Shown here piece after piece: positions 4,744 through 6,617 of a DNA stretch of 64,000 bases. Source of the stretch: Eledone cirrhosa. Taxonomy: Eukaryota. Where the stretch lies: the NCBI GenBank assembly GCA_964016885.1, contig OZ024742.1:12834001-12898000 (forward strand), read 5' to 3'. The notes beneath the pieces were generated by a model. That model was given only the letters and a program-made list of their open reading frames with translations, did no database searches and was not told the DNA's origin. The first letter of the stretch is position 1. Each line of letters starts with the position of its first letter. Position numbers and translations under genes: made by a program.

Positions 4744-4830
4744 TATATATATATATACATATATATATATATATATATATATATATATATATATATATAT
4801 ATATATATATATATATATATATATATATAT
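4744..4830. repeat. (TA)n microsatellite
   Basis: Direct reading; a second (TA)n lies at ~5082-5121. Confidence 0.97.
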
Positions 4831-5078
4831 AGAAAGTGAACAACACAAAATATAACTACTCCATTACCAAAGGTTTATGGATCCCAGACAATATTAATAT
4901 ATGTCTGGATCGGTCATCAGACAGGAATGTCATGGATAAAAAATATGGATAAAAAATATTTCATAATTTTTATCCATGACATCTCTGCCTGATGACCGAT
5001 CCAGACATATATTAATATTGTCTGGGATCCATAAACCTTTGGTAATGGAGTAGTTATATGTTGTGTTGTTCACTTTCT
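4831..5078. mobile_element. ~250-bp fold-back palindrome between (TA)n tracts; probable truncated/inverted Penelope-type pLTR with a degenerate hammerhead motif
   Basis: AGAAAGTGAACAACAC...CATGGATAAAAAAT is mirrored by ATTTTTTATCCATG...GTGTTGTTCACTTTCT. The right arm has CTGATGA, a hairpin, then TAAACC-TTT-GGTA. Confidence 0.75.
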
Positions 5079-5121
5079 AATTATATATATATATATATAT
5101 ATATATATATATATATATATA

Positions 5122-5156
5122 TTCGTTTCTGAATTTGTTTAGCAAGATTCTTTATC
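5122..5156 (-). mobile_element. 35-nt exact copy of the Penelope element 3' terminus
   Basis: TTCGTTTCTGAATTTGTTTAGCAAGATTCTTTATC is the reverse complement of 60642-60676 (35/35). Confidence 0.85.
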
Positions 5157-5264
5157 AAGATTCTTTATTCCATTCATGAATGGAATAGCAACTTTCTAAT
5201 TAAATAGCTCTGTTCTATACACAGAGCACTCTTTTTTCCTTTGCTTTTCCTTCGGAATTACCTA

Positions 5265-5443
5265 ACACACACGCGCGCGCGCGCGCACACACACACACGC
5301 ACACGCACACACACACACACACACACACACACACACACACACACACACACACACACACACACACACACACACACACACACACACACACACACACACACAC
5401 ACACACACACACACACACACACACACGCACATATATATATATA
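5265..5443. repeat. Compound (CA)n/(CG)n/(TA)n microsatellite
   Basis: Alternating purine-pyrimidine tract of ~180 bp. Confidence 0.97.
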
Positions 5444-5543
5444 TTAAGATTAGTGCTCTGAAATCTTTTGCTGGACCGGCAATCGCTCTGTATAATCAGC
5501 TCCTGATTATTACTGGAATTCTATAAGAATTCAGGTTCTATAA

Positions 5544-5634
5544 TTTTCGGCAAAAGCAGGGGAGTACGTGGCTCTGATGAACGCCAACCAGCATGAAACA
5601 GACTGTCAGCTTCTCTCTCATCTTTCGCCGAAAA
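5544..5634 (+). ncRNA. Type I hammerhead ribozyme motif
   Basis: GGCT, CTGATGA (5574-80), stem II ACGC-CAACCA-GCAT (one mismatch), GAAA (5595-98), stem III ACAG-A-CTGT, GTC cleavage triplet (5605-07), AGCT. Outer helix TTTTCGGC/GCCGAAAA. Confidence 0.8.
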
Positions 5635-5944
5635 GAAGTAAGTGACATAGTTACTGCCTTAAAACTGATAGCGTATGGTCTTCTACTCTTCTAAATGTTT
5701 GTAATTAAACATATGGTATATTGGCAAATATACTATACATACATTCATATATATATATATATATATAGTATTGAAGTAAACGAGGTATCGTTTAAGGTAA
5801 TCCAAGTAGAAGTTATGAGTAATCTGTACAGTGGATGATTCTAACCTGCAGTGTTGTTTGACCCAACAACATGTTTACTTGGTTGTGGTGTTAAGATGGC
5901 CGATTTCGGACAGTTCCTAGGTAAGCAGTTCCTGGAGTATTAAT

Positions 5945-6032
5945 AATGAAGAATAACACGGATAAGTTATACAGTAGGGTTTATTCCAAGCGTTAAGCCT
6001 TACTGTATAGCCTGTCTCTGTTATTCTTCATT
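5945..6032 (+). other. ~39-bp-arm hairpin rich in G-U pairs, abutting (TA)n
   Basis: AATGAAGAATAACACGGATAAGTTATACAGTAGGGTTTA pairs with TAAGCCTTACTGTATAGCCTGTCTCTGTTATTCTTCATT. Confidence 0.65.
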
Positions 6033-6617
6033 CTTTCATTATATATATATATATATTATATATATATATATATATATATACTTATATATATATATATACT
6101 TATATATATATGAGTGTATGTGTGTACATACATACACACATCAATTCATCAATAATCTGAAATCCCATCAGACAATTAATACATTTATAACTATGGAGTT
6201 GCCACAAACACGAATATATTCAGAGTCTGTTACTAAATCGTTGGGAAATCTTGCTTCAATGAACTGTTGCTTTTTCCGATGTTGTATTTTTTTTGCTTCG
6301 TTTTTGTAGTTGTTTTTCTTTGATTTTCGTATTACGATCGAGAATCCTTCGTCTACAGAGACTTGAGATCAATGAAAATTTCTAATGCCTATTATGTTGT
6401 CTATTATTGTAATATGATGATGATAATAAATATCTTAATATATCTGAATTATGTCCTCATTTATTTCACAACGAAAAAGTTCAGAAAAGAATATTATGTT
6501 TTATCAAGCGGAATAAAACAACAATTTTCTTTTTTATCTTGGTAATAACTGTTTTTTAGATATCGTTGGAAAGTATACTGAAAGTACAAAGTACAAACAT
6601 CTCTCTATTTTCTTTGT

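Follow-up and report, generated by a model that had tools for sequence, protein, structure and literature searches.

Why do TA and CA microsatellites, foldbacks and hammerhead-like motifs crowd together within 1.4 kb of the Eledone cirrhosa genome? The crowding was seen in a 64-kb stretch of DNA, the whole of which was analysed and is called the window below. An earlier note on this DNA had described a palindrome with a hammerhead-like core, an exact Penelope tail, a canonical hammerhead and a G-U-rich hairpin, and all four were present at or near the places where it had put them. We consider it likely (probability about 0.85) that this 1.4-kb region holds at least five insertions, representing four high-copy non-coding families and a 35-nt end of a Penelope-like element (PLE), each adjoining (TA)n or (CA)n and made by two-strand, Penelope-type target-primed reverse transcription.

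Composition of the two clusters

Throughout window positions 4736-6111, TA and CA tracts alternated with repeat modules, namely M1, a foldback of 250 nt; the 35-nt inverted PLE end; a 63-nt M1-type "tail"; M3, a 262-nt unit bearing a candidate minimal hammerhead of type I; and M4, a foldback that is G-U-rich and older. Over these 1.4 kb, short non-coding mobile copies and a Penelope-like end fragment are piled up in TA and CA repeats, with the following parts (strand given where assigned).

4736-4831: (TA)48 tract, left of the M1 foldback (TRF and sequence)
4832-4947, minus strand: M1 left arm, inverted, its short-type 3' end pointing left into (TA)n
4962-5081, plus strand: M1 right arm, its short end ...CACTTTCTAATT directly 5' of (TA)20
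5082-5122: (TA)20, adjoined by the right end of M1 and by the inverted tail of the PLE (TRF)
5122-5157, minus strand: inverted terminal ~35 nt of the long 3' end ("tail") of the autonomous PLE, adjoining (TA)n
5158-5201, plus strand: possible short rearranged M1-like 3' end, ending ...CAACTTTCTAATT (by eye, weak)
5202-5264, plus strand: M1-type "tail" extension (aaatagctctg...acctaaca), the M1 long 3' end
5265-5445: (CA)n with (CG)7, then (TA)7 (TRF)
5446-5465, minus strand: inverted ~20-nt piece of the M3 long 3' end (ttaagattagtgctctgaaat)
5466-5727, plus strand: M3 unit, retrozyme-like, with short-type 3' end ...catacattcat, then (AT)n
5556-5627, plus strand: M3 hammerhead motif (minimal, type I), with its core at 5574-5598
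5728-5767: (AT)n separating M3 from M4 (TRF)
5768-6039: M4 copy, long-end arm and short inverted arm
6040-6111: (TA)n, right of M4 (TRF)

The Penelope tail fragment (5123-5156), once reverse-complemented, matched 60642-60675 at 34 of 34 positions; that segment is the 3' end of a PLE copy with a GIY-YIG motif in its ORF. The left-end layout of the tail fragment recurred in the full-length copy L047 as well as in L024 and L101. A mini-palindrome (5166-5187) lies inside the M1-like 3' end, and the G-U-rich hairpin of M4 (5945-6033) had a predicted fold of -46.9 kcal/mol (z = -9.9). The second cluster that the earlier note had placed at 63.0-63.8 kb was also found, and comprised two features.

63044-63190: foldback remnant of family C2a, its long end on the left and preceded by (TA)n
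63523-63782: nested palindrome

The C2a remnant has a 132-nt arm and a right arm of 24 nt, which has TTTCTAATT at its end and is followed by (AT)47; the exact 21-mer of this right end was found only in the window, and the family was recovered by similarity search. Within the nested palindrome, two outer arms bordering on (AC)17 are separated by a TA tract, and this tract contains an inner hairpin of 110 nt that belongs to family E (63597-63708). The word TTTCTAATT occurred 7 times in the window where 3.0 occurrences were expected, and its occurrences include both module ends before (TA)n that the earlier note had singled out (5074-5082 and 63182-63190) and a further copy at 5193-5201.

Hammerhead-like motifs in M1 and M3

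The M1 palindrome (161-nt arms including TA, 96% complementary by the repeat finder) had a fold of -186.4 kcal/mol (z = -28.9), calculated on the DNA sequence. CTGATGA was observed at 4989-4995 on the plus strand, with a mirror copy at 4914-4920 on the minus strand. In the right arm, TAAAC (5032-5036) takes the place of the GAAA box, a variant common to both window arms and present in 3 of 32 readable arms, the other 29 having GAAAC. The core-adjacent pairs, read by eye, were C-A and C-C, leaving helix II without closure, and Rfam hammerhead models at E ≤ 10 gave no match to M1 in the window or in a better M1 copy. The palindrome and its CTGATGA hold; the hammerhead claim is weaker. Candidate miRNA matches on the palindrome and TA tracts all fell far under the Rfam threshold and were rejected as hairpin shape only.

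The M3 unit is non-coding, ~290 nt long, and carries a candidate type I hammerhead; it shows terminal redundancy or partial tandem structure, and its copies were mostly of 1.1-1.3 units, not long tandem arrays. The CTGATGA...GAAA core at 5574-5598 was the sole such core in the 64-kb window; at least one arose by chance in 33 of 100 shuffles, so the count alone is not significant. All hammerhead core bases are present in this copy and three helices can be drawn, with a short helix III (3 bp, 3-nt loop), an open helix I and a C5582-A5593 mismatch in helix II, at a position that was paired in 9 of 11 other copies. Rfam model HH9 scored the window copy at 16.1 bits (E = 1.8) and the better copy L003 at 25.1 bits (E = 3e-4), both below the threshold of 52, and Rfam at gathering thresholds gave no matches in the whole window. 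A strict hammerhead descriptor yielded 58 matches in the 544 kb of fetched loci, in M3 copies and other families, with none in the window and none in L047; the window M3 copy was missed because of its helix II mismatch. Cleavage of M3 RNA is predicted between C5607 and A5608, following the GUC at 5605-5607, and the mismatch probably weakens the ribozyme of the window copy. A complete core was present in only one of the four modules (M3), below threshold in Rfam, and the word "canonical" proved too strong for it.

Repeated copies and the autonomous element

All modules were high-copy in the 3-Gb genome, with first-look candidates numbering 2,990 for M3, 1,432 for the M1 arm, 1,173 for M4, 2,911 for C2a, 4,187 for family E and 39,949 for the PLE. 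Exact tail words occurred 13,631 (PLE), 1,562 (M1) and 1,842 (M3) times while the reversed-word controls gave 0, and the recurrence of the modules is therefore not due to chance. Among sequencing runs, three from one sample contained the stretch, and about 6% of its words occurred in other organisms. Copies of the families number from hundreds to thousands, their 3' ends lie at microsatellites, every family has both a short and a long 3' end, and tail-out inverted pairs are common, often with one end of each type. The multiple copies of the modules and the position of their 3' ends at microsatellites support the interpretation in the earlier note.

For microsatellite adjacency we used the first 30 matches in genome order for each tail, against a (TA)n-adjacency baseline of 2.1% for the window and of 6.9% for the outer flanks of the loci. 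The PLE tail was followed by (TA)n at 27 of these 30 sites. The M1 short end led directly into (TA)n in 12 of 30, into a 66-nt extension in 16 and into short TA in 2. The M3 tail word was internal to the unit in 16 matches and terminal in 14, with twelve of the terminal words running into (TA)n, one into (CA)n(TA)n and one into other sequence; short as well as long 3' ends were seen. The shortest tracts had 3 repeats and the longest more than 40. M1 long ends elsewhere were observed to lead into short (CA)n(TA)n. A flank-recurrence test of the window TA tracts, in which the choice of loci was biased, had few or no informative matches at 9 of 20 flanks (6657-left, with 4 matches, 6674, 6719-left, 57502, 62960, 62993, 63193-left, 63286 and 63583-left).

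Six of the twelve M1 loci were single arms, and 5' extents differed among loci, reaching about 300 nt. The long-end extension also followed the short end in L018-L020, L023 and L026. One long end was joined to one short end in 5 of 6 M1 pairs, with the sixth breaking the rule. The partner arm was the nearest neighbour for only 11 of 34 M1 arms, a test disturbed by arms that fall short of the 100-nt slice. Family E had an almost fixed centre and size with one-sided extensions in L160, L166, L167 and L168; such extensions were also present in M4, and C2a showed the two-ended tail-out signature.

The autonomous element is represented in the window by one degenerate insertion.

58045-60676, plus strand: degenerate autonomous PLE insertion, inverted pair

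Its left part (58045-58176) is an inverted 3'-UTR arm with a short end, and its right part is a 5'-truncated, frameshifted RT/GIY-YIG copy with a long end reaching 60676. An 11-bp target-site duplication, ATTACTATGAA, at 58034-58044 and 60677-60687, occurs exactly twice in the window and bounds the pair, which therefore represents a single insertion event; no TA was added at either end.

Among 127 scored PLE candidates, identity was 94-96% and open frames extended up to 1,257 codons. The ORFs P0001 and P0004 carry YVDD, a C-terminal CX4CxxC and a GIY..YIG core with two internal Cys. In an alignment of 29 homologues the RT motif (Y882, V883, D884, D885) was invariant, and the linker and GIY-YIG residues C1131, C1136, C1147, Y1154, C1158, C1163, Y1170, G1172, E1173, R1181, H1185, H1201, H1206, R1228, E1232 and N1244 were invariant or at least 90% conserved. 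The profile of this alignment matched a solved reverse transcriptase (E = 2e-8), and the homologues carry RVT_1. Pfam found no RT or GIY-YIG in P0004, the 1,257-codon frame, with one sub-threshold unrelated match, and no families in eight window ORFs; the GIY-YIG domain of P0004 was covered by no Pfam or PDB sequence match. Motifs, homologues and a single profile match to PDB are accordingly the basis of the domain calls, and by these the element has a YxDD reverse transcriptase and a GIY-YIG domain of CCHH type with an upstream CX2-5CxxC linker. Its motifs suggest a Neptune-like placement.

The full-length copy L047 reads, in order, (TA)n, an inverted 3'UTR with a long end, the ORF, a 3'UTR with a short end, and (TA)n, and the same-genome RT/GIY-YIG element has exactly the architecture of the non-coding families. 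A long and a short end were combined in 18 of 21 tail-out PLE pairs, including 9 of 9 directly abutting pairs, while 3 of 21 broke the rule; in the tail-selected sample, the partner was short in 14 of 15 (binomial P = 9e-6 against p(short) = 0.37). The arm test, restricted to copies aligning over nearly the whole 126-nt probe, was mixed. Arms were mutually nearest of 39 copies in both of the two directly abutting pairs that passed the filter, several pairs ranked 3-7 of 39, and one supposed pair was only 81% alike. The filter dropped the partners in L071, L083, L086 and L043 (indels). The arms of L083 and L071 looked unequal, and both arms of L086 had the same truncated alignment.

Hammerheads were sought in L047 with Rfam at E ≤ 1, with a published core descriptor requiring a real helix II and with our own descriptor, and none was found. 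The sole CTGANGA-N7-17-GAAA match in the PLE was without helix II and was not kept in other copies. When modules M1, M3, M4, C2a and C2b were compared with the full-length PLE locus by blastn, no similarity was seen besides TA repeats; the 34-nt tail fragment matched, and C2c matched only a family-E copy in the TA-rich flank. None of M1, M3, M4, C2a and E shares 3' sequence with the autonomous PLE, as judged against the L047 locus. Similarity between the modules and the PLE does not extend beyond the 35-nt fragment, and the proposed tie to a mobiliser comes from the architecture. The earlier note had proposed a guild of non-autonomous or truncated GIY-YIG retroelements at microsatellites and the linking of each module to an autonomous PLE. 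The tail fragment, the architecture and the adjacency agree with it, but no other module matched the L047 locus and the mobiliser is assigned by architecture. At least one further PLE family (50% amino-acid identity, one sampled locus) ended in (CA)n(TA)n, so other PLE partners exist.

Proposed insertion mechanism, alternatives and known systems

The two alternative 3' ends and their long/short pairing agree with the "tail" signature described for PLEs in the literature and with priming on two strands. Under the proposed mechanism, the GIY-YIG nuclease would cut an AT-rich or (TA)n target on both strands, and from each 3'-OH the element RNA would be copied into cDNA, beginning at one of two internal sites, to give long and short ends with the PLE "tail" as the sequence between them. 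The two cDNAs would then join head to head to form foldbacks. From their architecture, M1, M3, M4, C2a and E may use the PLE enzyme in trans, with M3 as a putative retrozyme-like passenger whose RNA would be cut by its hammerhead.

Near-perfect palindromes that encode nothing, with TA on both flanks and, in family E, an almost fixed centre and size, could also be expected of cut-and-paste DNA transposons (MITE/foldback, Tc1/mariner type), for which a TA target duplication would explain the TA flanks. We regard this origin as extremely unlikely. Half of the M1 loci consist of one arm only and vary in 5' extent, arm lengths differ among loci, and paired ends differ by a 55-66-nt extension, unlike terminal inverted repeats; the RT/GIY-YIG element shows the same architecture, and the duplication around one PLE pair is 11 bp and not TA. 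The non-coding families might instead be mobilised, in SINE-like fashion, by a retrotransposon outside the PLEs, for instance a LINE, and merely share (TA)n-rich landing sites with PLEs. Some LINE/SINE pairs also show 5' truncation and microsatellite 3' ends, and the modules lack sequence similarity to the abundant PLE. Such a partner nevertheless appears very improbable given the tail signature in M1, in family E and in the PLE itself, and given the further PLE family ending in (CA)n(TA)n.

A different question is whether the (TA)n tracts were prior targets at all, or only in part, since a telomerase-related RT could add or lengthen them at insertion, in which case the elements would themselves give rise to the microsatellites around them. 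Nearly all tails are followed by (TA)n regardless of copy length, tract lengths vary widely, and both outer ends of a tail-out pair are RT start sites, so that flanking TA alone is no proof of a TA target. We nonetheless judge addition unlikely, as 5'-truncated ends of single copies adjoin (TA)n too (M1 in L015 and L022; M3 in L002, L003 and L010), family E is nested in the TA tract that separates another element's arms, the PLE pair with the unique 11-bp duplication lacks added TA at both ends, and PMC8557442 reads such tracts as targets.

Penelope-type reverse transcription on both target strands is thus our preferred reading. We put forward more tentatively, at somewhat less than even odds, that every Penelope-type insertion here came from one RNA and two primers, each strand starting cDNA, one at the distal site and one at the proximal. 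If true, this would explain the long and short end in each pair, the arms that often end near the same 5' point, the private variants that the two arms have in common and the single target duplication around a pair. The asymmetry, obligatory under this reading, would apply to the autonomous element and to unrelated non-coding passengers alike, and the two start sites would be the enzyme's real recognition signal, marked in two families by TTTCTAATT.

For the E. cirrhosa genome these results amount to ordinary repeat annotation and a typical case of known, very common behaviour. The region explains the crowding of TA and CA microsatellites here by foldbacks and hammerhead-like motifs, and warns that miRNA-like and ribozyme-like matches in such tracts are transposon debris; the dsRNA hairpins of the earlier note are predictions from DNA sequence. 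The wider use of these results is as genomic evidence on the poorly understood integration of Penelope elements. The clean 11-bp duplication around an inverted pair indicates that pairs arise by a single insertion event, and the long-and-short rule spans coding and non-coding families and is testable in an existing in vitro system.

The preference for microsatellites, the tails, the inverted copies and the retrozyme-like passengers are all described in the literature already. The earlier note was largely right but is only partly supported, and its idea is already present in PMC8557442 (microsatellite bias of PLEs) and 10.64898/2026.07.22.740005 (retrozymes as PLE passengers). In the former (Craig et al. 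2021), PLEs favour (TA)n and show pseudo-LTRs, inverted copies truncated at the 5' end and a tail on one side, and those with a C-terminal EN carry hammerheads. Our element resembles the Neptune-type EN+ PLEs described there in its CX4CxxC linker, two Cys in the GIY-YIG core, (TA)n preference, tens of thousands of copies, inverted 5'-truncated partners and one-sided tail. It differs in that the full-length copy had no hammerhead match and in a tail of 55 nt (55-66 nt over the families) against 30-40 nt.

Retrozymes have been proposed as non-autonomous PLE derivatives or passengers (Li et al. 2026, 10.64898/2026.07.22.740005). Compared with the metazoan non-LTR retrozymes described there and by Cervera and de la Pena 2020 (PMC7229834), M3 is alike in its ~290-nt length, within 170-400 nt, its candidate type I hammerhead and its terminal redundancy or partial tandems, but is mostly of 1.1-1.3 units with a hammerhead below the Rfam threshold. 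Minimal type I motifs are massively present in metazoan genomes according to Cervera and De la Pena 2014 (PMC4209133), and M3 is like the minimal hammerheads of PLE pseudo-LTRs given there in its complete core, short helix III and open helix I, whereas the motif here is in non-coding M3 and not in the autonomous PLE.

The closest experimental comparison is with PAc, the Poseidon PLE of Anolis (Frangieh et al. 2024, PMC11167929), in which purified protein cleaves and extends both strands and reverse transcription starts at two adjacent internal sites, the tail being the sequence between them. The E. cirrhosa copies are alike in having two 3' ends with a tail between, in the evidence of both target strands priming and in an AT-rich target, although targets here are mostly (TA)n. 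In vitro no difference in PAc start site was seen between the two strands, whereas the pairs here are almost always long and short. The 11-bp duplication around the window PLE pair starts with ATT, the motif cleaved by PAc.

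Modules, microsatellites and repeat families

Within the AT-rich window (G+C 28%; source genome 3.0 Gb), short unique modules were observed to alternate with microsatellites at 4736-6111, in the following forward-strand order.

(TA)48, left of M1
4832-4947 and 4962-5081, arms of the M1 palindrome (250 nt)
(TA)20, between M1 and M2
5122-5264, composite module M2
(CA)n with (CG)7, about 170 nt, then (TA)7, between M2 and M3
5446-5727, M3, an inverted 20-nt fragment followed by a 262-nt unit
(AT)n, between M3 and M4
5768-6039, M4 (272 nt), with a hairpin in its final 90 nt
(TA)n, right of M4

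The M1 palindrome folded at -186 kcal/mol (z = -28.9) and the M4 hairpin, with numerous G-U pairs, at -46.9 kcal/mol (z = -9.9). The cluster of hairpin modules at microsatellites described in an earlier note is thus real, with modules, tracts and folds all present, and the second cluster it named was found at 63.0-63.8 kb (families C2a and E). Every module belongs to a repeat family, and none of the families was single-copy. Reversed-word controls for the tail words of M1, M3 and the Penelope-like element (PLE) gave 0 matches.

Copy number of the repeat families (first-look counts are lower bounds; exact tail words were counted in the whole genome)
Family; first-look count; exact tail word
M3; at least 2,990; 1,842
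M1 arm; at least 1,432; 1,562
M4; at least 1,173; –
C2a (cluster 2); at least 2,911; 1 for the window's divergent right-end word, which is not the family's own tail
Inner palindrome E (cluster 2); at least 4,187; –
PLE tail; –; 13,631

Other repeats were also observed in the window, two thirds of which is a single satellite.

7543-48880, 41-kb satellite, 38-bp unit, about 1,092 copies, 87% matches
582-1927, tandem array, 52 bp x 26
51497-52807, tandem array, 18 bp x 71
54427-54983, tandem array, (ACT)186
55058-57250, tandem array, 28 bp x 79
60860-61090 and 62700-62765, tRNA-like repeat of SINE type, present twice (…gagttcaaatcccgccgagg…gtcgataaaataaagtaccagtaat…ttgctggccttgtgccaaaagtagaaac), read by eye, as was a further copy in the flank of the fetched locus L156
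62917-63046, 69-bp unit holding (TA)17, duplicated 1.9 times, whose flanks had no match among the fetched loci

The autonomous element and its association with (TA)n

Window 5123-5156, within M2, was identical at 34 of 34 positions to the reverse complement of 60642-60675, the end of a degenerate retroelement upstream of 60676, and the exact Penelope tail reported from the sequence alone was therefore upheld. In the protein frame at 59271-60212 of this degenerate PLE copy, CX4CxxC precedes a GIY..YIG core (...IVYIGETARSVGERINEH...), and frameshifted reverse transcriptase (RT) pieces lie upstream. At least 39,949 first-look candidates for the protein were observed in the genome, identity to the window copy was 94-96% in the 127 that were scored, and the longest open frame had 1,257 codons. 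P0004, the protein of the full-length copy L047, has YVDD and, at its C terminus, the nuclease found in the window copy. A Pfam search recognised neither an RT nor a GIY-YIG domain in the window ORFs or P0004. A total of 82 homologues were found, some with RVT_1, the nearest named one being a hypothetical octopus protein. An alignment of 29 homologues showed YVDD, the linker cysteines, the GIY/YIG tyrosines and glycine, two internal cysteines and R, H, E and N residues to be invariant or at least 90% conserved, and its profile matched a solved reverse transcriptase (E = 2e-8). By its motifs the element resembles C-terminal-endonuclease (EN) PLEs of Neptune type, for which PMC8557442 describes these RT, linker and GIY-YIG features. 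At least one further PLE family is present in the genome: in locus L101 (reverse complement, sense coordinates 242-1400) a degenerate one aligns to P0004 over 232 residues at about 50% amino-acid identity, and its 3' end runs into (CA)n(TA)n.

Adjacency was measured on the first 30 pattern matches in genome order, a sample independent of the sequence 3' of the tail, with tracts called (TA)n-like when at least 14 of 16 bases agreed within 5 nt of the PLE tail. The PLE tail led into such a tract in 27 of 30 cases, whereas identical scoring made 2.1% of window positions TA-adjacent, the long satellite being left out, and 6.9% of those in outer flanks taken from 60 loci. Of the three tails lacking a tract, one was a tandem junction at which the tail met the beginning of the following PLE unit. 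When copies were selected by protein, 13 of 15 tails led into (TA)n. Among 30 matches to the M1 short end (...CACTTTCTAATT), 12 adjoined (TA)n directly, 2 adjoined short TA runs and 16 continued into a 66-nt extension (aaatagctctg...acctaaca, exactly window 5202-5264) that mostly led into short (CA)n(TA)n. Of 30 matches to the M3 tail word, 16 lay inside the unit; 12 of the 14 terminal ones ran into (TA)n, one into (CA)n(TA)n and one into other sequence. The enrichment near microsatellites proposed in the earlier note was borne out, and a relation of the modules to PLEs was partly supported.

Such adjacency could arise from insertion into (TA)n tracts or from their addition by the element, and insertion may also lengthen the tracts. 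The 5'-truncated ends of single M1 and M3 copies also adjoin (TA)n, and a PLE pair bounded by a target duplication has no added TA; we therefore favour targeting over addition.

Two 3' ends and inverted pairs

The 3' UTR of the PLE ended at 400-412 (26 times), at 455-463 (46 times) or elsewhere (3 times) in 50 loci, giving a short and a long end separated by a tail. L047 reads (TA)n, an inverted 3' UTR including the last 55 nt, the ORF, a 3' UTR 55 nt short, and (TA)n. Tail-out pairs, in which two inverted arms point their 3' ends outward, combined one long and one short end in 18 of 21 cases, including all nine with directly abutting arms. Where loci had been selected for a long tail, the partner end was short in 14 of 15, as against an unbiased short-end frequency of 7/19 (0.37; binomial P = 9e-6).

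The non-coding families M1, E, M4 and C2a share this architectural plan. Five of six M1 pairs carried the extension at only one end. Twelve M1 loci selected by similarity comprised six pairs and six single arms, the latter with varying 5' extents that reached about 300 nt. The 110-nt hairpin of family E lies between (TA)n tracts and had a one-sided extension in four of six inspected loci, and one M4 arm is about 175 nt longer than the other. In 8 of 9 C2a loci (TA)n lies immediately left of the long end, and the window copy has a partner arm of just 24 nt that ends in TTTCTAATT. This word stands exactly at the short-end boundary of the otherwise unrelated M1 and C2a-like families (5074-5082, 63182-63190; L178, L194, L198). 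With (AT)5.5 appended it has 705 genomic occurrences, as compared with 28 of its reversed control, and it may mark a start or recognition site. The order M1 palindrome, (TA)n, inverted PLE long tail (window 4832-5157) recurs in L024 and L101, which may reflect chance sharing of TA tracts or a composite copied as a unit.

The window PLE copy was inserted outside any microsatellite, and its limits are exactly readable.

58034-58044 and 60677-60687, ATTACTATGAA (11 bp), the only two copies in 64 kb
58045-58176, inverted 3'-UTR arm with short end
joined to that arm and reaching to 60676, 5'-truncated copy with long end

Since the 11-bp target duplication encloses both arms, both were made in one insertion. 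The duplication opens with ATT, which is also the cleavage motif of the Anolis PLE enzyme (PMC11167929). A single event is also indicated by the TAAAC shared by both arms of the window M1 palindrome (GAAAC in 29 of 32 readable arms), by two directly abutting PLE pairs passing the filter, in which the partner was the nearest relative of each arm among 39 other copies, and by arm stops at most 8 nt apart in four of nine abutting pairs (L059-L086; 357/353, 148/152, 152/144, 87/95; P about 3e-4 under a rough uniform model). These matching truncations look as if both cDNAs had run off one truncated RNA. Against single-event origin, however, the partner was nearest in only 11 of 34 M1 arms, several PLE pairs ranked 3-7 of 39, and indels distinguish some arms.

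Hammerheads and comparison with known elements

A complete hammerhead core was observed only in M3 (CTGATGA 5574-5580, GAAA 5595-5598, GTC 5605-5607). The window has no other CTGANGA-N7-17-GAAA match, but one or more arose in 33 of 100 shuffles. In the window copy helix II contains a C-A mismatch; among 11 other M3 copies, 9 have four pairs there. Rfam HH9 (family threshold 52) scored 25.1 bits on copy L003 (E = 3e-4 in 301 nt) and 16.1 bits on the window copy (E = 1.8), and the flanks form a long interrupted helix I (fold z = -4.55 and -1.97, respectively). The canonical hammerhead of the earlier note thus retains its core but not its canonical standing. The palindrome it credited with a hammerhead-like core is at most that: M1 carries CTGATGA and, in most copies, GAAAC...GTA, but two core-adjacent pairs are mismatched and Rfam gave no hammerhead match at E <= 10 for the window or another copy. 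Our own descriptor gave 58 hammerhead-shaped matches in 544 kb of fetched loci. Further families there use a short UAUAUA run as helix III (…GAAAtatataTA|ataaaataaata) with an 8-bp helix I (L028 3177-3225, L059, L075, L076, L082, L095, L099, L106, L131, L153 and others).

Neither Rfam nor core descriptors detected a hammerhead in the abundant autonomous PLE, whereas PMC8557442 has C-terminal-EN PLEs carrying one. The M3 unit measures about 290 nt, is terminally redundant and occurs in partial tandems; in size and make-up it matches the non-LTR retrozymes (PMC7229834), which have been proposed as non-autonomous PLE derivatives (10.64898/2026.07.22.740005). Only a 35-nt fragment of the modules shares sequence with this PLE, so it is their architecture that suggests mobilisation in trans.

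The cluster was read correctly, and the phenomenon is a known one. Published work already covers microsatellite bias, pseudo-LTRs, inverted partners, a tail with two start sites, minimal hammerheads and retrozyme passengers. The pairs fit the PLE insertions described in PMC8557442, where copies truncated at the 5' end lie inverted and one end bears a tail. The least ordinary point is the strict long-plus-short rule, of which we found no statement in the literature searched. In published biochemistry a purified PLE protein cut both strands and extended each, with reverse transcription starting at two adjacent internal sites (PMC11167929), which provides a biochemical explanation for the long and short ends in the genome; in vitro, however, the start sites did not differ between strands, whereas the pairs observed here almost always combine one of each.
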